Notes: generated from the letters alone by a model not told the origin. A DNA stretch of 64,000 nucleotides from Planctomycetota bacterium (GCA_965223265.1 OZ244999.1:4412188-4476187); one strand, 5' to 3'. Shown: positions 5,216 through 21,826, counted from the stretch's first letter. Translations and numbers: made by a program.

Positions 5216-5327
5216 CAGCAGCTACGCGGGATGAGGAGGAGACGGAGCGATACAAGTCCTCGGCAGGCTCGCCGATGCTTGCGAGCACCTTCATGCCGCC
5301 GCTGGAGGATCACTCTGGGATAGGCCA

Positions 5328-8300
5328 TCAGCCTGTGGTCAGGCAACTGATTTCATGCAGGCGTGCCCCTGTGCAAATATCGAGGGCCAACTCGGCCATC
5401 GCAGGATGGCACGTGAAGAACAGGATCTGGTGGTCGCGTGCGAAGCGATCGAACGCCTCGAGCATGCCCCGAGCGCGCCCGGGATCAAAATTGACGAAGA
5501 CGTCGTCAAGGATAAGCGGCAAATGAACGCTCCGGGAGGAGTATTCCGCAACCAATCCGAGTCGAAGAGCAAGATAGAGCTGCTCGGCTGTGCCGCGACT
5601 GAGCTCGCTGGTCCGTTTGCGCTTACCATCGACGTCGACGAGGATGATGTCTTGTCCATCCGTCGCCTGTAGCACGCGGGTGTATCGCCCGTCGGTTGCT
5701 AGGCGGAGGATTTCCGACGCTGCCGCGAACACGTGCGGCTGTCGCTTGAGTTCGTATTCACGCATGGTGCGCGCGATTAAGGCTCGAGCCAGCGACGCCG
5801 TCTCGAAACGTCGAGTCGCTTGCTTCAACTCGTTCTCCAACCCGGCACGTCGCGTTCGGAGCGTATCCAAATCGGCGGACTGTTCCAGCTCTCGTCTCGC
5901 CGCTTCACTGTCCCGTGCGGCTCGGATGGCGTCGTCTCGCGATCGCTCGACAGACTCGAGTGCTAAGTCGATGCGTTCCGCTTCCGCCTTCCACCGTTCA
6001 AGGTCGCCGCACGGTAAATCACGCCGTACGACCGCAGCTGCCTCGCCGCATCCGAGTCTGCTCTCAAGCTGCCGCTCACAACCCTGAATCACCCGCTCAA
6101 GTTCTCGGCGTCTCTTGGCGCGGCGTAAACTCTCGCGCAATTCCACTTCATTGGTTGCACCGACTTCATCAAACAGCGCCGAGAGTTCCTGCCGCGTGCG
6201 TCGGCGCTCCTCTTCAACTGACTGCAGACGTGCCTGTCGACGACCGATCTCGGTTGCTAGCGCCTCCAGTCGCGCGCGGCGTTGATCGTCGGCCTCGAGT
6301 CGGTCCATAAACTCAAAAAGAAGGGTGACCGGGTCAGAGTTCCCAGACGCCATCTCAGCCTGTCGCCCGCTCTGATCAGGAGAGCTCGAAGTACTTGGCG
6401 CAGGGCCGGACGCCACATCGACGACCCCGCAGCTCTCAGATGCGTCGGCCAGAAGCGCGGCGACGCCGTGACGCCAATCGCTCACCAGCTTCTCTAGTCG
6501 CACAGCTTGCGCACGCTCTTCGGCTTTTCGCGTCCATAGCAGCCTCAATCGATCGAGCTCGGTAAAAAAGTCCTGCGCCGCTTCCAGCTCAAGGGTCTCT
6601 GGCATCCCATTTCGACGCTGCCACTCATCCCATGCGGCACGGTTCACGGTCTCACGTCGCTCCATCTCGTAGCACCGCTCCCTGATCACTTCGACCTCGC
6701 TGCGAATCGATTCAAGCTCGAGCTCAACAACCTCAAGCCGTTCACGGCATTCTTCCGCTGCGACAACAGCGCCATGAGCGTGTTGCAGACAACGTGCCAT
6801 CCCGTCGAGATCTTGTTCTTCCGGCTCGGAGGAGAGGCCCAGCCGAGTGGCGCACTCGCTGACCTTTTCATGCAGTGCCTCTTGGCAAGCCCGACTCTCC
6901 TCGAGCACGGCTGCGAAGTTCTTGCGTTCACGCTTGCGGCGGCGCAGAAGGACTCCTGCGCAGACTGCCGCAAGAAGCATCACGAGCACGCCACCAACGA
7001 TCATCGCGACGCCACCACGTGTCACGGCGAGTTCAGGGCTGACAAACCAAAACGCAACGACGAGCGAGAAGGCCGTGCCGAGGGCTAGCGCCGCTAACGC
7101 GGCGACAAGGATCACATCGCTCGGCACTGTGACACCCGACGACGCCGCCAGTGGTGATTCGTTCTTTACGGGTTCGCCCGTAGGGGACTCGACCTCCGCG
7201 CTCCCGGGGGCCGCTCCAAAGCTCGTCGCACTCCCACCGCGCGTGAGGAAAGCATATTTCGCCCGCTCGATTTTCAGCTCGTGCCACGCCCCCTGCAGGC
7301 GACCAAGAAGCTCCTCCTGCTCTGAAATCTCCTCTGGCGACGGTGCTTCGACCAGTCGGCGCTGCAAACGAGTGGCCTCAGTCTGAAGGCGTCTCTCTTC
7401 ACGTTCCGGCGCCTGAAGCGCCGCCTCCAGCTCGGCTCGCTGCGTGCGACAAGTCTTAGCGGCGGCCTGAAGCGCCGCCAGCTCGTCGCGGGCCGGAGTC
7501 TCGCCGGTGTCCAAAAAGTGCCGAAACGCCTCCGACCAGTTTCCCGTCGCCTCCATCCCGCTCTCAAGAGCAGACGTCGCCGCCCGAAGCCGTTGCCGCG
7601 TCGCACTCAGCTCCTCGGTGCGTTGGCGAAACGAGCCGACGTCGGCGTACAGCTCGTTCGCGCGCACGCGCCACCGAGCCGCCTCAGGCAAGACACCTGC
7701 CTCCAGCCGCAGACGCGAAGCGTCGTCTGTCTTCAACTCAGCCCGTAGCGTAGCGATCTGTGCCTTGAGCGACTCAGCATGCCCGGTGAGTGCGCTCAGC
7801 CGGCGCTCAACGTCGTCGTGGTCCAAAACTGTCTCAGGAAGCTCCTGCATCTCGACGCGAGCGGCGTTCGCCTCACACCAAAGTGGCCAGAGATCGATGA
7901 GCGCCTCGAATCGAGAACGCTCCGATCGCAGCCCCTCAGCCTCAGCGCGCAGCCCATGCACGCTCGCCTCATGGCGTGCCTGCGCGTCGACGAGATCGCC
8001 GTAGTTTTCCATGGCGGCGCGCGCACGCTGTTCTTCGCCGCGGCACGCAGCGTATTCGGTGGCGAGCTGGGAGAGCCGTCCGCTGGCGCCTCTCTGTTTC
8101 AGCAGCGAAGAGATTTCCTCATCCAGCTGCCGCCGCACCTGGCGAACGGCTCTACCCGCTCCTGCCATGCCGGCTGAAAAAATTCGATCTTTGACTCCTT
8201 GCTTCGAAAGCGATGCGAAATCCTGAAGCTCCGTGAGGCTGAACGCGAAGACCGACTTGAAGAGCGCGCGATCCATCCCCCCGACAAGCTGGGAGAGCTC

Positions 8301-8621
8301 GGCCTCACCCGCCTCACGGCCATCGTCGTACTGCAAAAACGCTTGCCGCTTGCCGCGGGCGCTGCGCTCGATCGTCAGCCCTTTGCCGTTCACCTCGACG
8401 AGGAGTCGTCCTCCGTGTTCGCCACCGCGAAGCGGAGGATAAAGGCGCTCACTACTGCGCCCATCAGGAAAGCCGAAGAGCACCCCACGAAGAAACGCCA
8501 GAAGCGTGCTCTTACCAGCTTCATTCGGCCCGAGAAAGACCGTCATTGCAGTGTCGAGTCCGTCGACGTGTTCGTCGCAAAAGAGACCGAACCCATCGAT
8601 ATGCCAGCCGCGGAGAATCAT
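5328..8621 (-). CDS. YhaN/SbcC-like AAA ATPase (Walker A GPNEAGKST) with long coiled coil and a central two-helix transmembrane hairpin
   Basis: N-terminal Walker A motif. C-terminal signature/Walker B/D-loop region (QLYLALRLGL...LPLILDDVFVNFD). Long Glu/Arg/Leu/Ala-rich coiled coil. Hydrophobic hairpin VILVAALAALALGTAFSLVVAFWFV...VAMIVGGVLVMLLAAVCAGVLL followed by RRRKRERK. The start ATG overlaps the stop of the upstream nuclease gene (ATGA). Confidence 0.8.
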   Translation of the reverse strand: MILRGWHIDGFGLFCDEHVDGLDTAMTVFLGPNEAGKSTLLAFLRGVLFGFPDGRSSERLYPPLRGGEHGGRLLVEVNGKGLTIERSARGKRQAFLQYDDGREAGEAELSQLVGGMDRALFKSVFAFSLTELQDFASLSKQGVKDRIFSAGMAGAGRAVRQVRRQLDEEISSLLKQRGASGRLSQLATEYAACRGEEQRARAAMENYGDLVDAQARHEASVHGLRAEAEGLRSERSRFEALIDLWPLWCEANAARVEMQELPETVLDHDDVERRLSALTGHAESLKAQIATLRAELKTDDASRLRLEAGVLPEAARWRVRANELYADVGSFRQRTEELSATRQRLRAATSALESGMEATGNWSEAFRHFLDTGETPARDELAALQAAAKTCRTQRAELEAALQAPEREERRLQTEATRLQRRLVEAPSPEEISEQEELLGRLQGAWHELKIERAKYAFLTRGGSATSFGAAPGSAEVESPTGEPVKNESPLAASSGVTVPSDVILVAALAALALGTAFSLVVAFWFVSPELAVTRGGVAMIVGGVLVMLLAAVCAGVLLRRRKRERKNFAAVLEESRACQEALHEKVSECATRLGLSSEPEEQDLDGMARCLQHAHGAVVAAEECRERLEVVELELESIRSEVEVIRERCYEMERRETVNRAAWDEWQRRNGMPETLELEAAQDFFTELDRLRLLWTRKAEERAQAVRLEKLVSDWRHGVAALLADASESCGVVDVASGPAPSTSSSPDQSGRQAEMASGNSDPVTLLFEFMDRLEADDQRRARLEALATEIGRRQARLQSVEEERRRTRQELSALFDEVGATNEVELRESLRRAKRRRELERVIQGCERQLESRLGCGEAAAVVRRDLPCGDLERWKAEAERIDLALESVERSRDDAIRAARDSEAARRELEQSADLDTLRTRRAGLENELKQATRRFETASLARALIARTMREYELKRQPHVFAAASEILRLATDGRYTRVLQATDGQDIILVDVDGKRKRTSELSRGTAEQLYLALRLGLVAEYSSRSVHLPLILDDVFVNFDPGRARGMLEAFDRFARDHQILFFTCHPAMAELALDICTGARLHEISCLTTG

Positions 8622-9892
8622 TCGTCGTCGAGTGTCTCCTTGAGTCGATCGATGGCCTCCTCGGCAGCCACGCGCACGAGCGTTTCTGCTGCTTCACCGT
8701 GCCTCTCAGCGGACCACTGTGAGAGAGCGCGCCGCGCTAGAAGCGCCGTCGACTCGTCCATGAACGTCTCAAGATCTGGCGGTGCCTCGCACAACTCATT
8801 CGTAAGCCGAAGTAACTGCGACAGAAAATCGTCACGGCGCAGTAGCTCGGCGTCGTCCAAACGGCGTCCGGTCAGGGCTTTGACGCTCTCCCACCACAGA
8901 AGAGGCTGCTGCGATTCACACTCAGCGCGCAGCTCTGTGAGCAGGCCTTCAAGCACACCAACTCGCTTCAGGTCACGATGCAGCGGCCCGCGCCCGTAGA
9001 GCACGCAACGCACAACGAGTCCTCTGCCGTCTTCCTCCGACTGGCGCTGGCAGGCAGCGGCGTACAATTCGTCGCGGAGCTCGCGAATGTCGTTGACGCC
9101 CTCGATCGGTACGTTCAACTCGACAAACCGCAAGACGTCGAGCGCCTCGAAGGAGACTCGAGCGACTCTATCGTCTTCGACTTCGACGACGACCGCCCCC
9201 TTCGCACCAAGCTCACTCGGCTTGGGGGACCGGCCTTGGAGTGCTCCGGGGTAGATGATCCAAGGATCCCCTTTGCTGACTTGCGTGTACTGGTGGATAT
9301 GTCCAAGAGCCCAGTAATCATACCCGGTGGCTGCAAGATCGGAGACCTCGCAAGGGCTGTACGGCTCGTGTCCGTCGCCGCTACCGACGCTGCAGTGCAG
9401 CACCCCTATGGATAGACCTGGCTCGCCTCGGAGCTGGAATCGCCGCGCCAAGTTCTCGCGCACCGCGGCGGCACCGAAACTGATTCCACAGACGCTCGCG
9501 AGACGCACGCCGTCCTTCACGACTGGGACGCACTCGACGTGCGAGGCACCGAATGTATGCACGCTCTCTGGCCACCGACATGTTCCCCTTCGGCCATCGA
9601 GCGGATCATGGTTGCCGTGCGCGATCAACGTTTGAACTCCCGCTCGATCGAGACGCTCAAGCCCGCGGGCAAACCTCAATTGCGCTCGTATGCTCGCCTC
9701 TGTGCTGTCGAACACGTCGCCCGCAATGACCAAAAATGCTGCCTCACGCTGAAGCGTGAACGCCACCAGCGCGTCGAAAGCAGCAAGCGATGCATCGCGC
9801 AGCTCTGCCGCCACTCGTGGCGAGCTCCTCGCCACGCCCGTAAACGGACTGCCAAGGTGGAAGTCTGCTGCATGCACAAACGAGAATCGCAT
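8618..9892 (-). CDS. YhaO/SbcD-like calcineurin-family metallophosphoesterase (DNA repair exonuclease)
   Basis: MRFSFVHAADFHLGSP metallophosphatase motif I, GDVFD and GNHD motifs. Start at 9892 is preceded by GGAG, so the annotated longer ORF to 10093 is an over-extension. Translationally coupled to the downstream ATPase. Confidence 0.8.
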   Translation of the reverse strand: MRFSFVHAADFHLGSPFTGVARSSPRVAAELRDASLAAFDALVAFTLQREAAFLVIAGDVFDSTEASIRAQLRFARGLERLDRAGVQTLIAHGNHDPLDGRRGTCRWPESVHTFGASHVECVPVVKDGVRLASVCGISFGAAAVRENLARRFQLRGEPGLSIGVLHCSVGSGDGHEPYSPCEVSDLAATGYDYWALGHIHQYTQVSKGDPWIIYPGALQGRSPKPSELGAKGAVVVEVEDDRVARVSFEALDVLRFVELNVPIEGVNDIRELRDELYAAACQRQSEEDGRGLVVRCVLYGRGPLHRDLKRVGVLEGLLTELRAECESQQPLLWWESVKALTGRRLDDAELLRRDDFLSQLLRLTNELCEAPPDLETFMDESTALLARRALSQWSAERHGEAAETLVRVAAEEAIDRLKETLDDE

Positions 9893-10117
9893 TCTTCTCC
9901 ACTCCCTTCGCACGCCAATAACGCGCGGTGTCGGCAAGGACGCTCTCTCGCATCCTCTTGTCGATCGCTCAGTCACCGTCGCAAGGGTGCCTACCGCGAT
10001 GCGCAAGTCGACGATGTGCGTCGGGTCGAGTCGCGAGGCGCGGCACCGCCAGTGTCGCGCCTCGCGCGCGGCAGCGCAAGGGGCAAACCACACACTCCGC
10101 GCCGGCCCAGGACGTCG

Positions 10118-10900
10118 TCACAGTCGCGAGCGAGTTCGTATCAAGTCTATGGCCGTCTCGTGCACGACGCTATCCGCAGGCGTCGTCTGTGCGATGATCT
10201 GGAGCTCCGCGACGGGTGGCAGAGATGCTGGCCCAAGCTCCTCCAGAAGCTGTAGCGACAACGTTCGACTGAGGAGATCCAAGTCTTGCCGCAGGACGCA
10301 TTCCCGCAGAACTGCCCGCGCTCGCTCGGGGTCAATGCGAGCCAGTGCGGCGAGAGCTCGGTGACGAACGAGATGGAATGCGTCGGCCCGAATCGCTCGT
10401 TCGACACCCGCGGACGACGACCTGGCTGCGGCCCCGATCTCGCCGAGTGTCCCGGCCGCCCAGTACCGCGTCGCCGGATCGCCTGAAATCAACGCCTCGG
10501 AGAGCGCATCGACAGCGGCATCACCGTACGCAGTCAATTCTCGCGACGCCGACGGCGCAGTGTCACGCCGAAAACGATCAATCAAGTAGGGAATGGCCCG
10601 CCGCGAACGTCGCTCGGCGAGTGAATCCACCACAGCCTCGCGATGATCACCGACCGGGATACACAACAGCATGGCATCGACTCCACCCCGGCAGAGAGCG
10701 AGTGCTCGGCCACTACTGAGTAAAAGCGCGCCGAGAAGGCTCGCGGAGATGAGGAACACACCGGCGACTAGGAGTGTCGCTGGTCGCAGCGAACGCACTC
10801 GCGCCGACGCCGGGCTGCTATTGTGTGGATCAATCAACGTCGCCCCCCGCTTCAAGAGGAGAGCGCTATCGGCTACCCGGCGAACGAGCCTGAAAGTCAC
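10118..10900 (-). CDS. HEAT/PBS-lyase repeat protein, N-terminal signal/TM helix
   Basis: N-terminal hydrophobic helix (LLVAGVFLISASLLGALLL) followed by repeated helical A/L/R-rich units reminiscent of HEAT_2 repeats. No catalytic motif. Confidence 0.5.
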   Translation of the reverse strand: MTFRLVRRVADSALLLKRGATLIDPHNSSPASARVRSLRPATLLVAGVFLISASLLGALLLSSGRALALCRGGVDAMLLCIPVGDHREAVVDSLAERRSRRAIPYLIDRFRRDTAPSASRELTAYGDAAVDALSEALISGDPATRYWAAGTLGEIGAAARSSSAGVERAIRADAFHLVRHRALAALARIDPERARAVLRECVLRQDLDLLSRTLSLQLLEELGPASLPPVAELQIIAQTTPADSVVHETAIDLIRTRSRL

Positions 10901-11138
10901 CGGAAGCTCACCGTGATGTCTTCAGGTGGCTCGAACAAAACGAGCGGTTAGGCGTGGCACGGATTTAGGGATTTAGGCAGCGCCCTCCACACTGTCCTCG
11001 GCGTAGAGGCACGCATGGGCGCAGCGGAGACTGACGGATGGCGTTTTCGGCCCCGGTGCCGACAGGAATGGCGGAATCGGAGTGAGCGCCGGTCGAACGA
11101 ACCATCGAGAGCTTTTCTTGAGCAGCAATTCACGCCAC

Positions 11139-14100
11139 TCAGTTGCTGAACGTGATGAAGTTATCACTCATCGACAGATGCTGCGCCGCAATCCAGGCAG
11201 CCGAGCGCGTCACACCTGAGATGCGCACTTCGTCGAGAAGGCCGAGGAAATATGCCGTAGAGCCTGCGACTCGGCCGATATTGAGCGGCTGAGGGTTGGC
11301 GACGAGCGGCGACAGCGTCGAGTCTGCTGTCACGTCCACTCCATCGAGATAGACACGGCCCGTGCCGCCGTCGACTGACGTAGCAACGTAGTACCAAGTG
11401 TCCGATGAGAGGGTCAGGCCAGTGGCGCGAAGGTAGTTCGTTCCGCTGCCGAGCGACGTGACACGGCCTGAGCTCTGATGCACTTCAAGGTTGTAACCAA
11501 ATGAATCGTTCCAGACGTTCTTCTTCGAGACGATCCGCGGCGGATGCCCGGACTGCCCCGCCGCCAAACTGAACCAAGCCTCGATCGACAGCTGACCGGT
11601 GACCTCCAAACTGGGGCTCGTGCCGGCGTCAATAAAGTCGTCGACGCCGTCGAAGGAGCGAGCTGCACCGATCTGACCTGCCCCGGCGGTGCTGCCGCTG
11701 TTGACGCCATCGTTAATGTTCGCCGTCGAGTCTTGCAGGTCGGAGTTGAGATGCCAGACGGCATTGTAGCCTGCCGTCCAAACGCCGGCGGCGTCCTGGC
11801 CATCCGGTGCAACAGGATTATCATAGTAGAGCATGATGTAATCCACGCTCGAAACTGCGTCGATTTGGGGTACTCTCACCCATACGTAGGACGTCCCGGT
11901 TGGATCCCATGTGTCGATTTCGTGTGACAACACAGTGGTCCCGTCGTCATCGATGAAGCGAAGATCTTCACCAGCGGCCTGGATTGCGGCGTAGTCGAGC
12001 TTCGTCGCATCCAGCGTCACCAGAACCGGGAAGTCCACCAGGTTCTCCGCCTGCGCCGCGTTGTTGAACGTCAACTGACGGCGCTGACCCCACGACGCAT
12101 CCCACCAGCCAATGTTGCTCACCGTGATCGTCGTCGTCGCGCTGTCTGTGTCGCCGTCGTCGTCCGTCACCGTCAACGTCGCAAGGTACGTCCCCGCAGA
12201 GGCATACTCGTGCGTCGTCGTCACACCTGTGTCACCTTGAGTGTCGCCAAAGTCCCATGAGTACGACACAATCGTGCCGTCCGTGTCGCTCGAGCCAGAA
12301 GCGTCAAAGCTCACCAAAAGCGGCTCCAGACCCGACTCCGGAGTCGCTGTGAACGACGCCGTCGGAGGATCGTTCGGCACAGGAAGAACCGTCAGCACAG
12401 CATCCGCGCTCGTCACGCTCCCAAAAGCGTTACTCACCTCGACGCTGTAAAATCCCCCGTCATCCGCGAGCGTCAACACCGGCGTCGTGTATGAGCTGCT
12501 GGTCGCACCGGCGATCGGTACACTGTTCAAAAGCCACTGATACGACAGCGGCGCTGTTCCGCTCGCCACCACGTCGAACGTCGCGGTCTCCCCTTCGAAA
12601 ACCGACTGACTCTGCGGGTCCTGCGTGATGCTCGGCGGCGACGGCGCCGCGTCCACCGTGATCGACACCGCGGCCGACGTCTCGCTCACACCACCGTCGT
12701 TCGTCGCCACGGCCGTCAGGCTGTGCGTCCCTACAGGAACACCATTCCAGACGTACTCGTACGGGGCCGTTGTGTCGCTGCCAAGAAGGCCACCATCGGC
12801 ATAAAAGTCCACCTGGTCCACTGTGCCTTCAGGGTCCGAAGCCGTCGCTTCGATCGTCACATTCACTGGCTCAACGTACGACGTACCATCCGCCGGTGAC
12901 GTGATGCTCACCGTCGGCGGTGGACGACCGCCGCCCTCCCCGACGCCGTACGTCAGCATCCCGTCGCTCATCGACTGGTGCTGCGCCGCAATCCACGCCG
13001 CCGAGCGCGTCACGCTCGAGATCCGCACTTCGTCGAGAACCCCCAGAAAGTACGCCGTCGAGCCGGCCACCCGGCCGATGTTTAGTGGCTGGGGATTCGC
13101 CACCAGCGACGACATCGTCGAGTCCGTCGTCACGTCCACGCCATCGAGGTACACCTGGCCCGATGTGCCGCTCGCTGACGTCGCTACGTAGTGCCACGTG
13201 TCCGTGCCAAGCACCACCCCGCTGGCGCGCAGCGAGTCCGAGCCGCTGCCCAGGGACGTGATGCGTCCTGAGCTCTGCTGCACCTCGAGGTTGTAACCGA
13301 ACGGGTCGTTCCAGACGTTCTTCTTCGAAACGATCCGCGGCGGATGGCCTGATTGACCCGGCGCCAGGCGGATCCATGCCTCGATCGACAGCTGGCCTGT
13401 GATCTCAAGGCTGGCGCTCGTCCCCGCGTCGATGAAGTCGTCCACTCCATCAAACGTGCGGGCGCCGCCGATGCGTCCGGCGCCGGGCGCGGTGCCGTTG
13501 TCGACACCGTCGTTGGCGTTCGACGTCGAGTCCTGTGTGCCATCGAGGTGCCACACGCCTGCGTAACCGGCACTCCACACCCCCGCGGCGTCCTGGCCGT
13601 CAGGCGCCGAACCGTTGTCGTAGTAGAGCATCATGTAGTCAGTCGTCGAGCTCGCGTCGATCTGCGGCACCTTCACCCACACGTGCGACGTGCCCGCCGG
13701 GTCCCACGACTCGATCTCGTGCGACAGCACCGTGAAGCTATCCGCGTCAATAAACCGCAGGTCTTCACCTTGCGCTTGCGTCAGCGAATAGTCGATCCGC
13801 GTCGCATCCAGCGTCACCAGCACCGGGAAGTCCACCAAGTTCTCCGCCTGCGCAGCGTTGTTGAACGTCAACTGACGGCGCTGACCCCACGACGCATCCC
13901 ACCAGCCTATGTTGCTCACCGTGATCGTCGTCGTCGTGCTGTCTGTGTCGCCGTCGTCGTCCGTCACCGTCAACGTCGCAAGGTACGTCCCCGCAGAGGC
14001 ATACTCGTGCGTCGTCGTCACACCTGTGTCACCTTGAGTGTCGCCAAAGTCCCATGAGTACGACACAATCGTGCCGTCCGTGTCGCTCGAGCCAGAAGCG

Positions 14101-17100
14101 TCAAAGCTCACCAAAAGCGGCTCCAGACCCGACTCCGGAGTCGCTGTGAACGACGCCGTCGGAGGATCGTTCGGCACAGGAAGAACCGTCAGCACAGCAT
14201 CCGCGCTCGTCACGCTCCCAAAAGCGTTACTCACCTCGACGCTGTAAAATCCCCCGTCATCCGCGAGCGTCAACACCGGCGTCGTGTATGAGCTGCTGGT
14301 CGCACCGCCGATCGGTACACTGTTCAATAGCCACTGATACGACAGCGGCGCTGTTCCGCTCGCCACCACGTCGAACGTCGCGGTCTCCCCTTCGAAAACC
14401 GACTGGCTCTGCGGGTCCTGCGTGATGCTCGGCGGCGACGGCGCCGCGTCCACCGTGATCGACACCGCAGCCGACGTCTCGCTCACACCGCCGTCGTTCG
14501 TCGCCACCGCCGTCAGGCTGTGTGTCCCTACAGGAACACCATTCCAGACGTACTCGTAAGGGCTCGTTGTGTCGCTGCCAAGAAGGCCACCATCGGCATA
14601 AAAGTCCACCTGGTCCACGGTGCCTTCAGGGTCTGAAGCCGTCGCTTCGATCGTCACATTCACTGGCTCAACGTACAAAGTCCCATCCGCCGGTGACGTG
14701 ATGCTCACAGTCGGCGGTGGACGACCGCCGCCCTCCCCGACGCCGTACGTCAGCATCCCGTCGCTCATCGACTGGTGCTGCGCTGCAATCCACGCCGCCG
14801 AGCGCGTCACGCTCGAGATGCGCACTTCGTCGAGAACCCCGAGAAAATATGCCGTCGAGCCGGCCACCCGGCCGATATTGAGCGGCTGGGGATTCGCCAC
14901 CAGCGACGACATCGTCGAGTCCGTCGTCACGTCCACGCCGTCGAGGTACACCTGGCCCGTTGTGCCGCTCGCTGACGTCGCTATGTAGTGCCACGTGTCC
15001 GTGCCAAGCACTACACCGTCGGCGCGCAGCGAGTCCGAACCGCTGCCCAGAGACGTGATGCGGCTATTGCTCTGCTGCACCTCGAGGTTGTAACCAAACG
15101 GGTCATTCCAGACGTTCTTCTTCGAGACGATCCGCGGTGGATGCCCGGACTGCCCAGGCGCAAGGCGGATCCAAGCCTCGATCGAAAGCTGGCCCGTGAT
15201 CTCCAAACTCGCACTTGTCCCCGCGTCGATGAAGTCGTCCACTCCATCAAACGAGCGGGCGCTGCCGATGCGTCCAGCGCTCGGCGCTGTGCCGTTGTCG
15301 ACACCGTCGTTGGCGTTCGACGTCGAGTCCTGTGTGCCATCGAGGTGCCACACGCCTGCGTAACCGGCACTCCACACCCCCGCGGCGTCCTGGCCGTCAG
15401 GGGCCGAAGCGTTGTCGTAGTAGAGCATCATGTAGTCAGTCGTCGAGCTCGCGTCGATCTGCGGCACCTTCACCCACACGTGCGACGTGCCCGCCGGGTC
15501 CCACGACTCGATCTCGTGCGACAGTACTGTAAAACCGTCCGCATCGATGAACCGAATGTCTTCGCCTTGCGCTTGCGTCAGCGAATAGTCGATCCGCGTC
15601 GCATCCAGCGTCACCAGCACCGGGAAGTCCACCAAGTTCTCCGCCTGCGCAGCGTTGTTGAACGTCAACTGACGGCGCTGACCCCACGACGCATCCCACC
15701 AGCCTATGTTGCTCACCGTGATCGTCGTCGTCGTGCTGTCTGTGTCGCCGTCGTCGTCCGTCACCGTCAGCGTCGCAAGGTACGTCCCCGCAGAGGCATA
15801 CTCGTGCGTCGTCGTCACGCCTGTGTCACCTTGAGTGTCGCCAAAGTCCCATGAGTACGACACAATCGTGCCGTCCGTGTCGCTCGAGCCAGAGGCGTCA
15901 AAGCTCACCAAAAGCGGCTCCAGACCCGACTCCGGAGTCGCTGTGAACGACGCCGTCGGAGGATCGTTCGGCACCGGAAGAACCGTCAGCACAGCATCCG
16001 CGCTCGTCACGCTCCCAAAAGCGTTACTCACCTCGACGCTGTAAAATCCCCCGTCGTCCGCGAGCGTCAACACCGGCGTCGTGTATGAGCTGCTGGTCGC
16101 ACCGCCGATCGGTACACTGTTCAATAGCCACTGATACGACAGCGGCGCTGTTCCGCTCGCCACCACGTCGAACGTCGCGGTCTCCCCTTCGAAAACCGAC
16201 TGGCTCTGCGGGTCCTGCGTGATGCTCGGCGGCGACGGCGCCGCGTCCACCGTGATCGACACCGCGGCCGACGTCTCGCTCACACCGCCGTCGTTCGTCG
16301 CCACCGCCGTCAGGCTGTGTGTCCCTACAGGAACACCATTCCAGACGTACTCGTAAGGGCTCGTTGTGTCGCTGCCAAGAAGGCCACCATCGGCATAAAA
16401 GTCCACCTGGTCCACGGTGCCTTCAGGGTCTGAAGCCGTCGCTTCGATCGTCACATTCACTGGCTCAACGTACAAAGTCCCATCCGCCGGTGACGTGATG
16501 CTCACAGTCGGCGGTGGACGACCGCCGCCCTCCCCGACGCCGTACGTCAGCATCCCGTCGCTCATCGACTGGTGCTGCGCTGCAATCCACGCCGCCGAGC
16601 GCGTCACGCTCGAGATGCGCACTTCGTCGAGAACCCCGAGAAAATATGCCGTCGAGCCGGCCACCCGGCCGATATTGAGCGGCTGGGGATTCGCCACCAG
16701 CGACGACATCGTCGAGTCCGTCGTCACGTCCACGCCGTCGAGGTACACCTGGCCCGTTGTGCCGCTCGCTGACGTCGCTATGTAGTGCCACGTGTCCGTG
16801 CCAAGCACTACACCGTCGGCGCGCAGCGAGTCCGAACCGCTGCCCAGAGACGTGATGCGGCTATTGCTCTGCTGCACCTCGAGGTTGTAACCAAACGGGT
16901 CATTCCAGACGTTCTTCTTCGAGACGATCCGCGGTGGATGCCCGGACTGCCCAGGCGCAAGGCGGATCCAAGCCTCGATCGAAAGCTGGCCCGTGATCTC
17001 CAAACTCGCACTTGTCCCCGCGTCGATGAAGTCGTCCACTCCATCAAACGAGCGGGCGCTGCCGATGCGTCCAGCGCTCGGCGCTGTGCCGTTGTCGACA

Positions 17101-20100
17101 CCGTCGTTAGCGTTCGACGTCGAGTCCTGAAAGTCGTCAAGGTGCCACACGCCTGCGTAACCGGCACTCCACACCCCCGCTGCGTCCTGGCCGTCAGGTG
17201 CCGAAGCGTTGTCGTAGTAGAGCATCATGTGGTCAGTCGTCGAACCCGCGTCGATCTGCGGCACCTTCACCCACACGTGCGACGTGCCCGCCGGGTCCCA
17301 CGACTCGATCTCGTGCGACAGCACTGTAAAACCGTCCGCATCGATGAACCGCAGATCCTCACCTTGCGCTTGCGTCAGCGAATAGTCGATCCGCGTCGCA
17401 TCCAGCGTCACCAGTACCGGGAAGTTCACCAGGTTCTCCGCCTGCGCCGCGTTGTTGAACGTCAAGCGATGCCGGCGTGACCAGCTGAGATCCCACCACG
17501 ATCCGTTGACCGTGATGGTGTCGCTGATGGAGTCGGTGAATCCGTCGTTGTCAGTGACCGTCAGCGTGGCGGTGAAATCACCCACGGACGTGTACTCGTG
17601 AGAGGTCGTGACACCGGTGTCGACGCCGCCGTCGCCGAAGGTCCAATCGTAGCTCACGATGGTGCCGTCGGTGTCAAAGGACCCTGACGCGTCGAACTGC
17701 ACGGTGAGCGGGATCTCCCCCGAGGTTGGGGTGGCGGTGAACGCCGCCGTCGGGGGTTGACCGGAACCACTCACGACGCTGACCATGACGGAGTCGACAT
17801 CGACATGCCCCAGGTCGTTGATCACTTCAAGGAGTATCTCGTGATCGCCGACAGCGAGAGAGACCTGCGGCGACACGCCCGTCGCCAGCACAGTGCTGTC
17901 CGGCAGCAGCCATGTATAAGAGGAGATGACCGCACCTGGGTCGTTGCTCGCGGACGCATCGAGAGTCACCAACTCGAACCCGTCCTCATCCGTATCCGTC
18001 ACCATCTGATCGGCACCCGCGTCCGCAACGAGCGTTGAGCCGCAGTCGGGCAACACGCGGACATGCGTCGTGGTCGAGAGCCCTGCAGCATCTGAGACGG
18101 TGAGAAAGATGCGATAGAAGTAAATGTTGCCGTCGCATCCGGCGGGCGAAATGACCGTGCTAGTGCTGCAGTTCGGGTCAACGGGATCGCGGTGATCGTG
18201 GTCGTTGTGGATAAGGAAAGTTTGCCACGCACAGGTCAGTTCGCCTTGGCTGTGCTCCGCGTCCGAAATCGTCGCCGTCAAACTGAACGGGGTGTCACCG
18301 GCCATGGAATAGAGAGTGCCGTCGACTGGACTATCAATCGTGACACTGGGCGGCGTGTTGTTGAGCGAAATCACGACGGTCGCTGTATCGGTTGCACCCC
18401 CCGAATCGGTCACGGTCAAAACGACATCGAACTGGGTCGGCACCCCAGGCGATGCGGTGAACTGATGGGACGGGTCTGCCTGGGTGCTGATCGGGCTGCC
18501 GTCGCCGAAATCCCACTCGTAGGTCACAGCACCTTCGGGATCAGACGAGTTGCTGCCGGTGAACTGGACCGTCAAAGGTGTGGGGCCGTAGAAAACGTCT
18601 GCTGAGGCAACTGCGGTCGGGTTTTGATTACCGCCGGGTGCGTACGCCACCTCGAAGATCTGGTCAGTATTCCAATCGACGTAGTAGAGCCCGCCGGTCT
18701 GGGGATGCGTCGCGATGTAGACGATCGAACGGGCAGCGCTCGAGTCGAGAAAATCCCTGACTTCTACCGGCTGATCGCTGCCGTCGAAGACGAAGTTACG
18801 GATCCACCTGCCAGAGTAGTCGGCGTGGAAGTAAGTGTCTTTGTACTGCGCTGGGAAATCGTCGGCCGTGTACCACACACCGCCGATCGCCGAATTGCCG
18901 CCGAACTGCGGCCCGGCCACGGGCGAGCCGGCTGCACCGATGTTGATGACGTCGGCGTCGAGTCCATCGTAGATCCCGGTCCGTGATGGGCCGCTCCCAT
19001 GACGCCAGTCAATGGCGGGACGCGTATGGAGAAAAACCTCGACGCTGCCTGGAATGGCCTGCGCTGGATCACAGGGGTTGGGAAAGAACGGGTTAGGATC
19101 TAACGTGTCCTGCTGAATGAGGTCGTTGAAATAGAAAAACTCTTGCGTACAGCCACCGACACCGAAAAGCGGATTGGGAGCATCTTCGTTCGGGACGTCA
19201 CGCGAAAAGTAGCCGCTATGGACCGTCAACCCCTCAAACGCCGGCCAGCCAAAATTCTGTCCCGGAGCAGTGGCAACGTGAAGATCTTCCCAGATCTGCC
19301 AGCCGACATCGCCGATGTAGATCGAACCTGGGTTTCCATCTGATGGGGTGTGAGATCCTGAATTCGGCCGCAGCGCAATGCGACAAGGATTTCTCAGCCC
19401 AAGCGACCAGACCCGGGAACGCGCCGAGCGCGGCGCCGCGGCCTCCCAAAATGGATTGCTCGGCAACCCGTCACCAGTGTCTGGATCGAGACGGACGATC
19501 TTGCCGCTGAGCGAACTCAGCATCTGCGACCGATACGCGCCCACGTTCTCGTCTGGGCGGATGATCCCGTCCGCTAACCCGTCGACGTAGTAAGTCTCGG
19601 AAGCACTGCCTGTATCGGTCGACGAGTAGCTGGCACCGTCGCCGCACGAAGCGATCAGCGTGCCATCGGTTCCAAAGATCAGTCCACCAACGCCGTGAGA
19701 TTGGTGCAGAATCGGAAAACCGGTGCTCGCTGTCTCCCCGAGAAGGACCAAGCGGCTGTTCGGATCGATCGCCGTCGCATGCCCGAAATCGTCATCGCCA
19801 GGGGGTTTGATCGCAGTGTAACGGGTGATTCGCCCAATCGTCGCGGCGAAATACTCGTTTTGCGCCGGGTTGTAGCTCGGCGTACCAGCGTGCAGCAGAT
19901 GATGCCGATCGACGACGTAGAGCAGGTAGACATGACCGTTGAGGTGATAGTTGGGGTGGAGGGCGAAACCGAGGAGACCGTAGTCACGCCAACCTCCGAC
20001 CTCGTCGTTGATGTCGATGAATGGAGTCGCCAATTTGACTCCGTTCTCAACGATCCAGACGCGTCCGCCGCGCTCCCAGACAAAGACTCGATTCTCGTGA

Positions 20101-20246
20101 TCCTGCGGGTCGAACGTCAGCCCTATGACCTCGTTCCACCCACTGCCGACGGTGGTCTCGACGAAGTCAGGAGGAAGCGCCCACAAAGAGACCGGAAGAC
20201 AGAAAGCCAGCGCTAGATGGATCCCTACGTTCGCTCGTCTTGGCAT
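11139..20246 (-). CDS. Giant secreted multidomain protein (3035 aa): signal peptide, PQQ-dependent sugar dehydrogenase-like beta-propeller, PKD/Ig domains, then four DUF2341-LamG modules (three followed by Big-Ig(I-set)-PKD)
   Basis: N-terminal signal peptide (HLALAFCLPVSLWALP). GSDH-like propeller region. PKD signatures (WDFGDG...Y..L.VTD). Repeated WWD.SW..R..LTFNN (DUF2341) followed by LamG_3-like FDGVDDFIDAG...LSIEAW. Ig I-set-like and bacterial Ig-like segments. A single uninterrupted ORF of 9108 nt. Confidence 0.85.
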   Translation of the reverse strand: MPRRANVGIHLALAFCLPVSLWALPPDFVETTVGSGWNEVIGLTFDPQDHENRVFVWERGGRVWIVENGVKLATPFIDINDEVGGWRDYGLLGFALHPNYHLNGHVYLLYVVDRHHLLHAGTPSYNPAQNEYFAATIGRITRYTAIKPPGDDDFGHATAIDPNSRLVLLGETASTGFPILHQSHGVGGLIFGTDGTLIASCGDGASYSSTDTGSASETYYVDGLADGIIRPDENVGAYRSQMLSSLSGKIVRLDPDTGDGLPSNPFWEAAAPRSARSRVWSLGLRNPCRIALRPNSGSHTPSDGNPGSIYIGDVGWQIWEDLHVATAPGQNFGWPAFEGLTVHSGYFSRDVPNEDAPNPLFGVGGCTQEFFYFNDLIQQDTLDPNPFFPNPCDPAQAIPGSVEVFLHTRPAIDWRHGSGPSRTGIYDGLDADVINIGAAGSPVAGPQFGGNSAIGGVWYTADDFPAQYKDTYFHADYSGRWIRNFVFDGSDQPVEVRDFLDSSAARSIVYIATHPQTGGLYYVDWNTDQIFEVAYAPGGNQNPTAVASADVFYGPTPLTVQFTGSNSSDPEGAVTYEWDFGDGSPISTQADPSHQFTASPGVPTQFDVVLTVTDSGGATDTATVVISLNNTPPSVTIDSPVDGTLYSMAGDTPFSLTATISDAEHSQGELTCAWQTFLIHNDHDHRDPVDPNCSTSTVISPAGCDGNIYFYRIFLTVSDAAGLSTTTHVRVLPDCGSTLVADAGADQMVTDTDEDGFELVTLDASASNDPGAVISSYTWLLPDSTVLATGVSPQVSLAVGDHEILLEVINDLGHVDVDSVMVSVVSGSGQPPTAAFTATPTSGEIPLTVQFDASGSFDTDGTIVSYDWTFGDGGVDTGVTTSHEYTSVGDFTATLTVTDNDGFTDSISDTITVNGSWWDLSWSRRHRLTFNNAAQAENLVNFPVLVTLDATRIDYSLTQAQGEDLRFIDADGFTVLSHEIESWDPAGTSHVWVKVPQIDAGSTTDHMMLYYDNASAPDGQDAAGVWSAGYAGVWHLDDFQDSTSNANDGVDNGTAPSAGRIGSARSFDGVDDFIDAGTSASLEITGQLSIEAWIRLAPGQSGHPPRIVSKKNVWNDPFGYNLEVQQSNSRITSLGSGSDSLRADGVVLGTDTWHYIATSASGTTGQVYLDGVDVTTDSTMSSLVANPQPLNIGRVAGSTAYFLGVLDEVRISSVTRSAAWIAAQHQSMSDGMLTYGVGEGGGRPPPTVSITSPADGTLYVEPVNVTIEATASDPEGTVDQVDFYADGGLLGSDTTSPYEYVWNGVPVGTHSLTAVATNDGGVSETSAAVSITVDAAPSPPSITQDPQSQSVFEGETATFDVVASGTAPLSYQWLLNSVPIGGATSSSYTTPVLTLADDGGFYSVEVSNAFGSVTSADAVLTVLPVPNDPPTASFTATPESGLEPLLVSFDASGSSDTDGTIVSYSWDFGDTQGDTGVTTTHEYASAGTYLATLTVTDDDGDTDSTTTTITVSNIGWWDASWGQRRQLTFNNAAQAENLVDFPVLVTLDATRIDYSLTQAQGEDIRFIDADGFTVLSHEIESWDPAGTSHVWVKVPQIDASSTTDYMMLYYDNASAPDGQDAAGVWSAGYAGVWHLDGTQDSTSNANDGVDNGTAPSAGRIGSARSFDGVDDFIDAGTSASLEITGQLSIEAWIRLAPGQSGHPPRIVSKKNVWNDPFGYNLEVQQSNSRITSLGSGSDSLRADGVVLGTDTWHYIATSASGTTGQVYLDGVDVTTDSTMSSLVANPQPLNIGRVAGSTAYFLGVLDEVRISSVTRSAAWIAAQHQSMSDGMLTYGVGEGGGRPPPTVSITSPADGTLYVEPVNVTIEATASDPEGTVDQVDFYADGGLLGSDTTSPYEYVWNGVPVGTHSLTAVATNDGGVSETSAAVSITVDAAPSPPSITQDPQSQSVFEGETATFDVVASGTAPLSYQWLLNSVPIGGATSSSYTTPVLTLADDGGFYSVEVSNAFGSVTSADAVLTVLPVPNDPPTASFTATPESGLEPLLVSFDASGSSDTDGTIVSYSWDFGDTQGDTGVTTTHEYASAGTYLATLTVTDDDGDTDSTTTTITVSNIGWWDASWGQRRQLTFNNAAQAENLVDFPVLVTLDATRIDYSLTQAQGEDLRFIDADSFTVLSHEIESWDPAGTSHVWVKVPQIDASSTTDYMMLYYDNGSAPDGQDAAGVWSAGYAGVWHLDGTQDSTSNANDGVDNGTAPGAGRIGGARTFDGVDDFIDAGTSASLEITGQLSIEAWIRLAPGQSGHPPRIVSKKNVWNDPFGYNLEVQQSSGRITSLGSGSDSLRASGVVLGTDTWHYVATSASGTSGQVYLDGVDVTTDSTMSSLVANPQPLNIGRVAGSTAYFLGVLDEVRISSVTRSAAWIAAQHQSMSDGMLTYGVGEGGGRPPPTVSITSPADGTSYVEPVNVTIEATASDPEGTVDQVDFYADGGLLGSDTTAPYEYVWNGVPVGTHSLTAVATNDGGVSETSAAVSITVDAAPSPPSITQDPQSQSVFEGETATFDVVASGTAPLSYQWLLNSVPIAGATSSSYTTPVLTLADDGGFYSVEVSNAFGSVTSADAVLTVLPVPNDPPTASFTATPESGLEPLLVSFDASGSSDTDGTIVSYSWDFGDTQGDTGVTTTHEYASAGTYLATLTVTDDDGDTDSATTTITVSNIGWWDASWGQRRQLTFNNAAQAENLVDFPVLVTLDATKLDYAAIQAAGEDLRFIDDDGTTVLSHEIDTWDPTGTSYVWVRVPQIDAVSSVDYIMLYYDNPVAPDGQDAAGVWTAGYNAVWHLNSDLQDSTANINDGVNSGSTAGAGQIGAARSFDGVDDFIDAGTSPSLEVTGQLSIEAWFSLAAGQSGHPPRIVSKKNVWNDSFGYNLEVHQSSGRVTSLGSGTNYLRATGLTLSSDTWYYVATSVDGGTGRVYLDGVDVTADSTLSPLVANPQPLNIGRVAGSTAYFLGLLDEVRISGVTRSAAWIAAQHLSMSDNFITFSN
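11990..17480. repeat. Three near-identical in-frame tandem copies of a 1797-bp (599-codon) unit inside the giant gene; a fourth, diverged copy of the DUF2341-LamG part lies at 11139..~12100
   Basis: Six-frame ORF markers recur exactly every 1797 bp (12241/14038/15835; 12823/14620/16417; 13184/15011/16808). Direct alignment of 11941-12245 with 13741-14045 shows near identity from ~12030 onward. Encoded protein copies differ only by scattered substitutions. Confidence 0.9.
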
Positions 20247-20356
20247 GCGCTTTCCCTACGTTGACAAAAAGCAAGCGGAAAACTGGAGCGCGGCCGTATT
20301 TAAGGCATAAAACTAGCCCAGTTGCCCTGATCTCCGCCGTTCGATTGAAGCACCCG

Positions 20357-20383
20357 CTAGATTGTTCCTAGAGATTGTTCTAG
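20357..20383. promoter_or_regulatory. Direct repeat CTAGATTGTTC CTAGAGATTGTTCTAG in the 5' region of the giant gene (candidate operator)
   Basis: Two copies of AGATTGTTC, 6 bp apart and flanked by CTAG, lie ~110-135 bp upstream of the giant gene ATG (20246, minus strand), within a locally AT-richer 317-bp intergenic region. Confidence 0.3.
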
Positions 20384-20563
20384 TCGAGTGTCGCCCACCC
20401 GCCGGCCGAATGCAAGCTTAACATTATCGGGCTACCCCAACGGCCAGAGCACGCGAGGCACTCCCCCCAAACAACGGCCAGAACGGTCTTGATCGCACCG
20501 TTTTCGGATGCGCGCAATCGCCGGCGCATCACGCCGCGCTCCACCGGCACCCGCGGCGCACCT

Positions 20564-21826
20564 TCAGTTGACGCCGTCTCCGAGACGCCAGAGCGCCAAG
20601 CCGCTCCACAGCTTTGGGTAAAAGTAGGTCGTTTTGTGCGGGAAGACCTCGTGCCCCTCGACGACGCCCCGAAACTCGTCGCGACCTACAGGCTGCATGC
20701 GAAAAAGGACGTCGCCGTCGCCACGCTCGAGCGCCACCCTCTCGCCAGTCCCCTCCTTGAAGTACGTCACGCCCGCAGGTGCTACGCAGCTGCTCAGCCA
20801 ATCGCCGAGCACGACGTCTTGGAGCAAACCGTAACTGGTCGCGGCGACACCTTGGCGGGCACTCCGGAGAGCCGAGGGAAATCGCACCGGATACCCATCG
20901 CTGGCAGTCTCAATGACCATGTCCCAAGCCTCAGCGGCGGCGACTTGTTCCATCTTCGGGAGGACGCGCTCCAGGGCCTCTGCCGCAGACATGCCCTGCA
21001 GCTTCACCATACGATGTGTCGCCAGGATCGACAGCCCATCGCTGAACAGATTCGCAAACGTCATGAGCTGCCAGTTCGCGGCGGCGTCCCCGTGCGCGAG
21101 CTCGTCGCGGTAACGCAGCCCCATGGTGTAGCGGTGATGTCCGTCGGCGATGATCGGATTCTGTGCAGCGAATAGCGTGGTTAATTGCGCCACATCGGCG
21201 TCTGCCCCGATGCGAAAGAGCGCGTGACGCTCACCCGGCTTGGCCTCCACTTCGACGACGGGCTCACCCGCAGCATTCGCCTCGAGAATCGCATCGATGT
21301 GCCGTTCAGGATCCGAGTAGAGGAGAAAGATCGACTCGAGATGGGTTCGCGTCGCATGCAAAAGCTGGAGCCGGTCGTCCACGACCTTGGGGAACGTCTG
21401 CTCGTGCGGCAAAACCACGCCGTCGGCGAAAGGATGCAGCCTTCCAAGCGCGAGGAGCCCGTGGAAACGCCGCGCCGCGCCGCGCCCGGAAGCCTCTTCT
21501 ACAGGCACGTGGTAGTCGACGGTGTAGACGTAAAATCCGGGTGTCTCGTCCTGGCGCAAAACCCCTTTCCCCAGCCACCTCTCCAACTCGCGCGACCGTG
21601 ATGCATAGTCCACCGCCCCTGCCGCACTGTCGGCATCAGAAGCAGCGCCTAAGGTCAATCGCGTCACGTTGTAAGGTGAGCGCTCGAGCAGCTCGGCGTG
21701 CTGCGAGGGCGAGATCACGTCGTACGGAGGCGCCGTAACGGCCTCCGCTACAGCACGCTCGGGTGGTTCAATCGACCTGAGAACTCCGACGTCGTAGCGG
21801 AGAGCACGGAGAGGAGATATGTCCAT
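20564..21826 (-). CDS. DUF1015 family protein
   Basis: MDISPLRALRYD... N-terminus and overall similarity pattern to the conserved DUF1015 family. Start chosen at the internal Met (coordinate 21826) that matches the family N-terminus; the longer ORF to 21913 is possible. Confidence 0.65.
   Translation of the reverse strand: MDISPLRALRYDVGVLRSIEPPERAVAEAVTAPPYDVISPSQHAELLERSPYNVTRLTLGAASDADSAAGAVDYASRSRELERWLGKGVLRQDETPGFYVYTVDYHVPVEEASGRGAARRFHGLLALGRLHPFADGVVLPHEQTFPKVVDDRLQLLHATRTHLESIFLLYSDPERHIDAILEANAAGEPVVEVEAKPGERHALFRIGADADVAQLTTLFAAQNPIIADGHHRYTMGLRYRDELAHGDAAANWQLMTFANLFSDGLSILATHRMVKLQGMSAAEALERVLPKMEQVAAAEAWDMVIETASDGYPVRFPSALRSARQGVAATSYGLLQDVVLGDWLSSCVAPAGVTYFKEGTGERVALERGDGDVLFRMQPVGRDEFRGVVEGHEVFPHKTTYFYPKLWSGLALWRLGDGVN

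Follow-up and report, generated by a model that had tools for sequence, protein, structure and literature searches.

A giant planctomycetal gene carries an in-frame tandem array of five-domain units that may form a multivalent lectin-like protein

In titin and nebulin, as at the locus described here, duplication acts on a super-repeat in which several different Ig-type domains are copied together; these proteins are eukaryotic, ancient and unrelated to the one considered below, and their copies are far more diverged. Among bacteria, the Periscope Proteins comprise SasG/Aap, Rib/alpha C, Sgo_0707, Esp and CdrA, and they are defined by a repeat number that changes from strain to strain within a species or among closely related ones (Whelan et al. 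2021, PMC8201768). The gene studied here shares with them in-frame tandem repeats of folded domains within a large, apparently secreted bacterial protein, very high DNA and protein identity between repeats, a functional-looking N-terminal domain, and intragenic homologous recombination as the presumed changer of copy number. It departs from them in its unit, a 599-aa block of five different domains rather than one domain or a short E-G5 pair, and therefore identical domains are never neighbours. Further differences are that half of the unit is a globular lectin-like module where Periscope Proteins have a stalk element, that no wall or membrane anchor is recognised, that divergence between copies points to slow turnover, and that the host is an environmental planctomycete and not a host-associated pathogen. 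The sizes and domain content of giant planctomycetal genes have also been reported (Kohn et al. 2016, PMC5177795, citing Reva and Tummler 2008), and these genes, in which domains are commonly duplicated internally, are often found where gene content is unique (PMC5177795). Our gene resembles these in exceeding 5 kb, in belonging to a genome of roughly 9 Mb, in its repeated Ig-like and lectin-like domains and in lacking a counterpart at the corresponding place in the nearest complete relative, but that literature (PMC5177795) does not include near-identical 1.8-kb internal repeats or a conversion mosaic as found here.

The window analysed, to which all coordinates refer, is a 64,000-nt stretch of DNA that named relatives of its CarB place in the phylum Planctomycetota. 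The giant gene lies on the minus strand at 11139-20246, where the ORF list gives a frame of ~9.1 kb that contains the whole array and translates without internal stops into 3,035 aa; an identical protein, P0001, is already recorded on a contig of 9,179,496 bp and forms a singleton cluster in the protein collection. The N-terminus, MPRRANVGIHLALAFCLPVSLWALPP, resembles a Sec signal peptide when read by eye, and the protein is predicted to be secreted. The head (aa 1-560; 18567-20246, minus strand) comprises this putative signal peptide and then a beta-propeller of the GSDH (glucose/sorbosone-dehydrogenase) type that matches Pfam PF07995 with E = 8.5e-17 and 61.9 bits against a cut-off of 25. 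At the sequence level, the head weakly matches solved soluble PQQ-type dehydrogenases and the propellers of Hedgehog-interacting protein, and it is conserved at about 50% identity across hundreds of homologues. Between head and array is a middle region of PKD and Ig-like domains (aa 561-831; 17754-18566, minus strand), in which Pfam recognised PKD, PKD_4 and K319L-like_PKD stretches and which is collinear with the homologue P0002. Across the whole protein, Pfam counted four DUF2341, four Laminin_G_3, three Big_7, three Ig_3/I-set and five PKD domains, all above their cut-offs, with DUF2341 (176 bits) and Laminin_G_3 (255 bits) adjacent in that order and over gathering scores. The C-terminus falls immediately past the last LamG domain. 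Pfam recognised no C-terminal anchor family, a search that planctomycetal anchoring signals may escape, and no promoter or terminator was found when the sequence downstream of the gene was scanned.

Window positions 12084-17474 hold three head-to-tail copies of a 1,797-bp unit in a single intact ORF. The unit is exactly 599 codons long and begins on a codon boundary, although the phase chosen as the start of each copy is arbitrary. All three copies are on the minus strand: U1 (aa 925-1523; 15678-17474), U2 (aa 1524-2122; 13881-15677) and U3 (aa 2123-2721; 12084-13880) each encode DUF2341, LamG, Big_7, an Ig domain (I-set in U1) and PKD. Nucleotide and amino acid identities are 98.2% and 98.7% for U1-U2, 95.6% and 97.5% for U2-U3, and 94.4% and 96.5% for U1-U3, so the three 599-aa repeats show the high identity expected of Periscope repeats (96.5-98.7% amino acid, 94.4-98.2% DNA). 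Self-comparison at an offset of 1,797 gave 88-100% identity per 99-nt block from ~11985 to 15650, with partners extending to ~17450, against a background of 20-40% at other offsets. The 1,797-nt spacing was also returned by a separate repeat search, and Tandem Repeats Finder missed the array because the longest period it covered was 500. The initial annotation was thus right to see three in-frame tandem repeats of 1797 bp in one uninterrupted ORF, at 94.4-98.2% DNA identity, and the array is a genuine in-frame tandem amplification in a lineage-specific giant gene. Its description of them as long perfect repeats did not hold, given that pairs of units differ at 32-100 sites and exact matches extend to at most 842 nt (U1/U2) and 370 nt (U2/U3).

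The array is flanked on both sides by diverged partial copies. At the 3' end of the gene lies U4 (aa 2722-3035; 11142-12083, minus strand), a partial unit of 314 aa that contains DUF2341-LamG only and shares ~75% nucleotide and 76-78% amino acid identity with U1-U3, from which it also differs by one additional codon. At the 5' edge, local alignment and ungapped comparison delimited PKD0 (aa 832-924; 17475-17753, minus strand), whose PKD domain (aa 832-913) shares 72% amino acid identity with the PKD closing each unit. The dS between U4 and the internal copies is about 1.0-1.2 (dN/dS 0.13-0.16) versus 0.05-0.18 among the internal copies. This supports an array that is older at both edges, 5' PKD0 and 3' U4, than in its core, and agrees with the earlier proposals that a diverged fourth DUF2341-LamG copy ends the gene and that the array is old at its edge and young in its core.

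The variation among the internal copies has the pattern of selected coding sequence. Most differences are synonymous, with dN/dS at 0.10-0.15, third codon positions hold 76 of the 105 variable sites, and substitutions of all types occur (63 transitions, 41 transversions); U1-U3 and U4 are kept under purifying selection. The scattered differences among lectin-fold repeats led us to consider a diversity-generating retroelement target, where changes would be expected at template adenines and would be mostly non-synonymous. This was rejected on the occurrence of all substitution types, the third-position excess and the low dN/dS. U3 is separated from U1 and U2 by a dS of 0.14-0.18 with dN/dS of about 0.1, and therefore the three distinct copies have long been maintained under purifying selection, which argues against rapid gain and loss of units. 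The label of recent expansion consequently fits part of U1 and U2 only and not U3, at its dS of 0.14-0.18 from both.

The differences between copies are also arranged in blocks. U2 is a mosaic that equals U3 at unit positions 1-128, 154-366 and 1371-1740 and equals U1 at 367-1370. Sites in positions 1-128 and 154-366 group U2 with U3, the grouping of U1 with U2 at positions 367-1370 is backed by 62 sites versus 1, and U2 with U3 is favoured again at 1371-1797. Private sites follow the same blocks: 21 of the 26 in U1 fall in positions 1-366 and 62 of the 73 in U3 fall in positions 367-1370, with only 5 in U2, while positions 113-153 hold three distinct, mostly synonymous versions, one per unit. 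The longest shared exact tract spans 842 nt (U1 16267-17108 = U2 14470-15311, minus strand), and a second spans 370 nt (U2 13938-14307 = U3 12141-12510, minus strand); when the differences (32 for U1/U2) were placed at random 20,000 times, runs this long never arose. The block-wise switching of copy pairings indicates gene conversion or unequal crossover, and a single ~1-kb conversion or a pair of unequal crossovers explains the mosaic about equally well. The 842-nt tract is the trace of a recent conversion or crossover and offers the best substrate for more unequal recombination, which, as had been suggested, is mechanistically possible between copies given the two shared exact tracts. Conversion of U3 by U4 was rejected: polarised against U4 as the outgroup, the sites private to U3 fall 22 on one branch and 26 on the other, which fits ordinary divergence.

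A compact, lectin-like double domain makes up half of each unit. An AlphaFold2 model of DUF2341-LamG (pLDDT 90.8, pTM 0.89) shows a confident concanavalin-A-like fold of the jelly-roll, lectin type; the structure is predicted given that a sequence search of solved structures with the unit returned matches confined to its Ig, PKD and Big_7 half. Domain 4 of AbnA and the CBM40 of sialidases are concanavalin-A-like carbohydrate-binding modules that occur in multiple copies and share 7-21% identity with DUF2341-LamG, and one PDB match, 2w68, is a sialic-acid-binding domain engineered to be multivalent, its title citing multivalency-enhanced affinity. Unlike these, the protein studied here has an additional N-terminal DUF2341 beta-sandwich fused to every LamG. 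The DUF2341-LamG module is probably ligand-binding, with carbohydrate as a likely ligand on the strength of the modelled fold. The papers found give no characterised function for DUF2341, and its place in a repeated lectin-like module on a dehydrogenase-type propeller offers a concrete binding hypothesis for this family. A role as a surface fibre is doubtful because half of the unit is a compact double domain, the repeats do not form an elongated rod-like stalk, and Pfam recognises no C-terminal anchor.

The giant gene belongs to a group of GSDH-headed multidomain secreted proteins, having PF07995 above the gathering score followed by PKD domains. Members such as P0002, P0014 and P0079 share the propeller and PKD region (~730 aa) at about 45-60% identity and carry labels such as 'glucose/arabinose dehydrogenase', 'PKD domain-containing protein' or 'LamG-like jellyroll fold domain-containing protein'. 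Their C-terminal binding-type modules are variable; several members have PKD-DUF2341-LamG after the head, and many from Bacteroidota end in a T9SS sorting domain that is absent from our protein, which has four DUF2341-LamG modules whereas the GSDH-headed homologues examined, all distant at 48% identity or less, have one or two. The closest homologue, P0002 (locus L008), aligns collinearly over aa 57-1621 at 48% identity; its two DUF2341-LamG copies lie 1,815 nt apart and are 98.6% identical. The two copies of L020 are spaced 1,842 nt apart and share 90% identity, and L012 and L016 have a single module behind the same propeller head. Among distant homologues the number of modules ranges from 1 to 4, and the pairing of DUF2341 with LamG was seen in 81 related loci. 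Among the 1.84 billion representative proteins searched, P0002 alone aligned to the full 599-aa unit in a single stretch, at 44% identity. Protein searches with the unit alone returned mostly generic Ig, PKD and Big_7 matches and no full-unit protein at high identity, and a genome-collection scan returned distant partial matches only, at 26-46% identity and no stronger than 1e-19. Exact-sequence queries of a gene-position index with the giant protein, CarB and the HEAT protein gave no match. In the nearest complete relative, whose CarB is 78% identical, the order CarB, SQHop-like, DUF1015, HEAT, Metallophos and SbcC-like is kept, with nothing between DUF1015 and HEAT, so that the giant gene is absent at the syntenic site. 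Separately, an array of a similar type, with a period of ~1.8 kb, was seen at L087.

We favour, at a probability of roughly 0.6, a reading in which this locus encodes a secreted planctomycetal protein whose multivalent lectin-like array was built by duplication, with an origin in unequal recombination and a role in valency. The starting layout would have been PKD-DUF2341-LamG-(Ig-like spacers)-PKD-DUF2341-LamG, with homologous stretches ~1.8 kb apart. Unequal homologous recombination between those stretches would then have added whole 599-codon units (DUF2341, LamG, Big_7, Ig and PKD), and at least two later exchanges, by gene conversion or unequal crossover, may have homogenised portions of adjacent units; we infer this order of events. 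The product would be a secreted N-terminal propeller followed by four DUF2341-LamG modules with three-domain Ig-like linkers between them. Duplication would raise the valency of the ligand-binding module, and avidity for a repetitive polymer or surface is the most likely role, with added protein length as a putative by-product. The internal duplication is genuine, if rather ordinary for a large secreted protein; it shows no sign of fast on/off switching of length and does not overturn current understanding. The locus is a well-resolved example of how a large bacterial protein grows by duplication of a multi-domain block and not of a single domain, in which stages of growth are visible: the edges are old and diverged, the core is younger, and homogenisation has proceeded in blocks.

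A Periscope-type surface protein, in which the near-identical units would exist chiefly to let recombination quickly change their number within populations and thereby the projection of the N-terminal head, is an unlikely alternative that corresponds to the initial annotation's suggestion of phase-like length variation in a surface fibre. The 599-aa units are 96.5-98.7% identical, the 842- and 370-nt exact tracts could sustain RecA-type exchange, the functional-looking domain is N-terminal with the repeats C-terminal to it, and module number is unequal among distant homologues. However, frequent gain and loss should leave near-identical copies, as in the most extreme variable proteins (PMC8201768), and the copies here are distinct haplotypes at dS 0.05-0.18; this divergence argues that any copy-number turnover would be slow. 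The compact double domain is not rod-forming, and the absence of a C-terminal anchor recognised by Pfam also speaks against this alternative. In a related and similarly improbable version, the number of five-domain 599-aa blocks would vary within natural populations and tune both valency and reach, as a 'supermodule' form of Periscope-type variation; if so, the ~1.8-kb arrays in L008, L020, L087 and possibly L007 would be independent cases of the same strategy.

We also think it improbable that the duplication is selectively neutral, with the extra units as tolerated passengers that bring no benefit of valency or length. Giant planctomycetal genes commonly contain internally duplicated domains (PMC5177795), and the gene is missing from the nearest complete relative, both of which would suit such a scenario. 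A dispensable copy would drift towards a dN/dS of 1, however, and dN/dS is 0.10-0.16 across all three units and U4; no frameshift of the kind that a dispensable copy would acquire occurs in 5.4 kb, and the same module has been duplicated repeatedly at similar spacing in other lineages.

An assembly artefact, with a true unit number that is lower or higher and a chimeric middle copy, is very improbable: 1.8-kb repeats with an 842-nt exact tract invite such errors and U2, apart from its 5 private sites, is a patchwork of U1 and U3, but four of those sites cluster within 40 nt with three of them synonymous, unlike sequencing error, the frame is open over all unit junctions, the third-position bias and low dN/dS of the differences reflect real evolution, and the single 9.18-Mb contig suggests long reads spanning the 5.4-kb array. 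The collapse or expansion that the initial annotation warned of is accordingly unlikely here, with each copy carrying private, mostly synonymous variants. The array does mark a spot at which related genomes, when assembled from short reads, may suffer collapses or frameshifts. The related contig L007 may hold an assembly artefact in its copy number, and we rejected it as proof of a 10-copy array elsewhere: its copy number is unreliable, with five units 100% identical on a contig labelled 1x, and its unit length of 1,795 is not divisible by three.

The giant gene is a single open reading frame on the minus strand, running from 20246 down to 11139 (3,035 codons, no internal stops), and much of it consists of a long unit repeated in tandem. 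When the window was shifted by 1,797 nt and compared to its unshifted copy, 99-nt blocks showed 88-100% identity from ~11985 to 15650, and the remaining offsets gave 20-40%, the level of unrelated sequence. The 1,797-nt spacing was also recovered by a repeat search; the array was not reported by Tandem Repeats Finder because the longest period of that program is 500. The high-identity region starts in register with the codons, at gene position 2773 (aa 925), and comprises three minus-strand units of exactly 599 codons each, U1 (15678-17474), U2 (13881-15677), and U3 (12084-13880). Nucleotide and amino-acid identities are 98.2% and 98.7% for U1-U2, 95.6% and 97.5% for U2-U3, and 94.4% and 96.5% for U1-U3. 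The last 314 codons of the gene (11142-12083) form a partial fourth copy, U4, which corresponds to the first half of the unit with one codon more and shares ~75% DNA and 76-78% protein identity with the units. At aa 832-913, directly preceding U1, there is a PKD domain with 72% identity to the PKD at the end of each unit; this domain and U4 therefore mark an old, diverged edge at either end of the array. The initial annotation had described in-frame 1,797-bp repeats whose gain or loss would preserve the frame, together with a diverged fourth copy, and all of these points, including the coordinates, are borne out. The feature is thus real and correctly located, but its interpretation was partly overdrawn; the repeats are not perfect, given that the longest exact tracts in common are only 842 nt (U1/U2) and 370 nt (U2/U3). 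Antisense to the units, plus-strand ORFs of 231-288 aa recur at ~1,797-nt spacing (13353-14057, 14988-15854, and 16785-17480) and are most simply by-products of high GC content and repetition rather than genes.

All Pfam matches in the giant protein were above curated cut-offs. A glucose/sorbosone-dehydrogenase (GSDH) beta-propeller near the N-terminus is followed by PKD domains, and each unit then carries DUF2341, Laminin_G_3 (LamG), Big_7, an I-set/Ig_3 immunoglobulin domain, and PKD. The protein terminates right at its last LamG domain, and Pfam recognized no anchor family in it. Judged by eye, the N-terminal sequence (MPRRANVGIHLALAFCLPVSLWALPP) resembles a Sec signal peptide. Structural matches to the lectin-type module are domain 4 of a GH43 arabinanase (22.5), the heavy-chain/receptor-binding region of clostridial neurotoxins and the related NTNH proteins (17-20), CBM40 sialic-acid-binding modules (16-17), and pentraxins and laminin G domains (12-17). 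In each unit, three Ig-like spacer domains thus come after a lectin-type module of the concanavalin-A-like kind. The papers found give no characterized function for DUF2341; they mention it as an addition to MotA/ExbB-type proteins and as part of very large putative adhesion proteins.

There are 105 variable sites among U1-U3, 76 of which fall at third codon positions, and all substitution types are represented. With the Nei-Gojobori method in a custom script, we obtained dS and dN/dS values of 0.05 and 0.15 for U1-U2, 0.14 and 0.11 for U2-U3, and 0.18 and 0.11 for U1-U3; for the units against U4, dS was 1.0-1.2 and dN/dS 0.13-0.16. The low dN/dS in every comparison indicates purifying selection on all copies, and the three-copy state is not brand new. 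The differences among the units are strongly clustered. U1 is the odd copy at 10 sites and U2 at 3 within unit positions 1-128; a patch with three distinct haplotypes follows at 129-153 (U3 odd at 8, U2 at 1); U1 is odd at 11 sites and U3 at 1 within 154-366; U3 is odd at 62 and U2 at 1 within 367-1370; and U1 is odd at 5 and U3 at 2 within 1371-1797. When an equal number of differences was placed at random, identical runs of 842 and 370 nt were matched in 0 of 20,000 placements. Most simply, this mosaic could reflect an early split of U1 from a U2/U3 ancestor and then a recent U1-U2 conversion of ~1 kb, or it could reflect two unequal crossovers; either history would require at least two exchange events. 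When U4 served as the outgroup, sites private to U3 divided 22 to 26, and conversion of U3 by U4 was therefore rejected.

The best-supported reading is that the five-domain block was amplified in tandem inside the gene by unequal homologous recombination and that the units were then partially homogenized, in a protein that would be secreted and whose repeated element is a lectin-type module. Duplication likely raises the valency of the protein and thereby its avidity for a ligand of repeating structure, probably a polysaccharide, and the extra length of the protein is likely a side effect of module gain. Large repetitive secreted bacterial proteins with tandem repeats in concerted evolution are a known kind; what is distinctive here is the size of the repeat unit, its multi-domain composition, and its lectin content. 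The initial annotation had instead suggested that the array may provide phase-like length variation of a surface fiber; fast variation of this type would resemble the Periscope Proteins, a class whose defining feature is variation between strains (PMC8201768). This view is weakened by the divergence of the copies from each other, by the globular nature of half of the unit, and by the lack of a recognized anchor, and we consider it improbable that the number of five-domain blocks varies at the population level. An assembly artefact is an unlikely source of the copy number, given that every unit keeps private, mostly synonymous variants and that three distinct haplotypes occur at positions 113-153, which speaks for three genuine copies rather than a product of the assembler. 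The spectrum of substitutions led us to reject a DGR-type target.

The N-terminal ~730 aa (propeller and PKD) share 45-60% identity with hundreds of large proteins whose C-terminal modules are highly variable. Among 1.84 billion representative proteins searched, the whole 599-aa unit was matched as one stretch only by P0002, the closest homologue, which is collinear with the giant protein over aa 57-1621 at 48% identity. Its locus, L008 (ENA ERZ25039601, contig_19681; 3804-6578), carries a pair of DUF2341-LamG copies at 1,815-nt spacing, with 98.6% identity over 960 nt; a single indel breaks the called ORF, and P0002 thus ends in out-of-frame residues. Methyltransferase and glycosyltransferase genes come after the P0002 gene. 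A metagenome scan for DUF2341-LamG returned 79 loci, and with L007 and L008 included, 18 of 81 loci have at least two such modules. The ~1.8-kb spacing of L008 was seen in three further loci: L020 (1,842 nt, copies 90% identical), L087 (1,845 nt, 99% identical over 333 nt), and L007 (1,795 nt, 89-100% identical). The propeller-PKD-DUF2341-LamG layout is present in L008, L012, L015, L016, and L020, where the DUF2341-LamG modules number one or two, compared to four in the giant protein. These modules are always far more alike within one protein than between proteins, and the amplifications were therefore independent or the copies have been held alike by conversion. L007 (1-18022; ENA ERZ26222911, ctg956403_1x_c) is an 18-kb contig of 67.6% GC that is taken up almost wholly by about ten tandem units of 1,795-1,838 nt, which have the domain content of the window's unit and 49% amino-acid identity to it. 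Its copy number is not trustworthy, given that five units show 100% identity, the contig is named as 1x, and the common length of 1,795 is not divisible by three, so that the frame shifts once per unit; L007 may represent either a genuine array in decay or a loop made in assembly.

The flanks consist of ordinary chromosomal genes, encoding threonyl-tRNA synthetase, an SbcC/SbcD-like pair, a HEAT-repeat protein, DUF1015, carbamoyl-phosphate synthase, and OMP decarboxylase. Every named relative of CarB belongs to Planctomycetota (72-80% identity), and the exact giant protein is recorded once, on a 9,179,496-bp contig. The DUF1015 and HEAT-repeat genes directly flank the giant gene (intervals 10900-11139 and 20246-20564). 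The nearest complete relative, a 7.87-Mb contig with a CarB 78% identical (locus L011), keeps the order CarB, SQHop-like, DUF1015, HEAT, Metallophos, and SbcC-like. There, DUF1015 and HEAT are direct neighbors 466 nt apart (L011 15752-18139), with no gene between them and no trace of the giant protein by tblastn. The giant gene is therefore lineage-specific at this site, either through a gain in the source genome or a loss in the relative, in agreement with reports on planctomycetal giant genes generally (PMC5177795). Two genes downstream of it, an SbcC-like ATPase (1,097 aa) and a metallophosphatase (491 aa) overlap by 4 nt (5328-10093); their closeness to the array is probably a coincidence, since the pair is conserved in L011. 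The protein encoded at 30711-33977 (1,088 aa) has Big_5 and FG-GAP domains. L009 and L011, the two relatives examined, have proteins of 1,067-1,069 aa with this architecture at the equivalent position, and the gene is part of the shared gene order, in contrast to the giant gene. Farther along, a 13-nt tandem repeat (CACGTCACGGCCT) at 40937-41029 (~7.5 copies, 82% matches, with indels) shares 17 nt with the 3' end of an ORF for a TPR protein (41013-43343, minus strand); the rest of the repeat is immediately downstream of that ORF, and GC is raised to 0.66 across this stretch.
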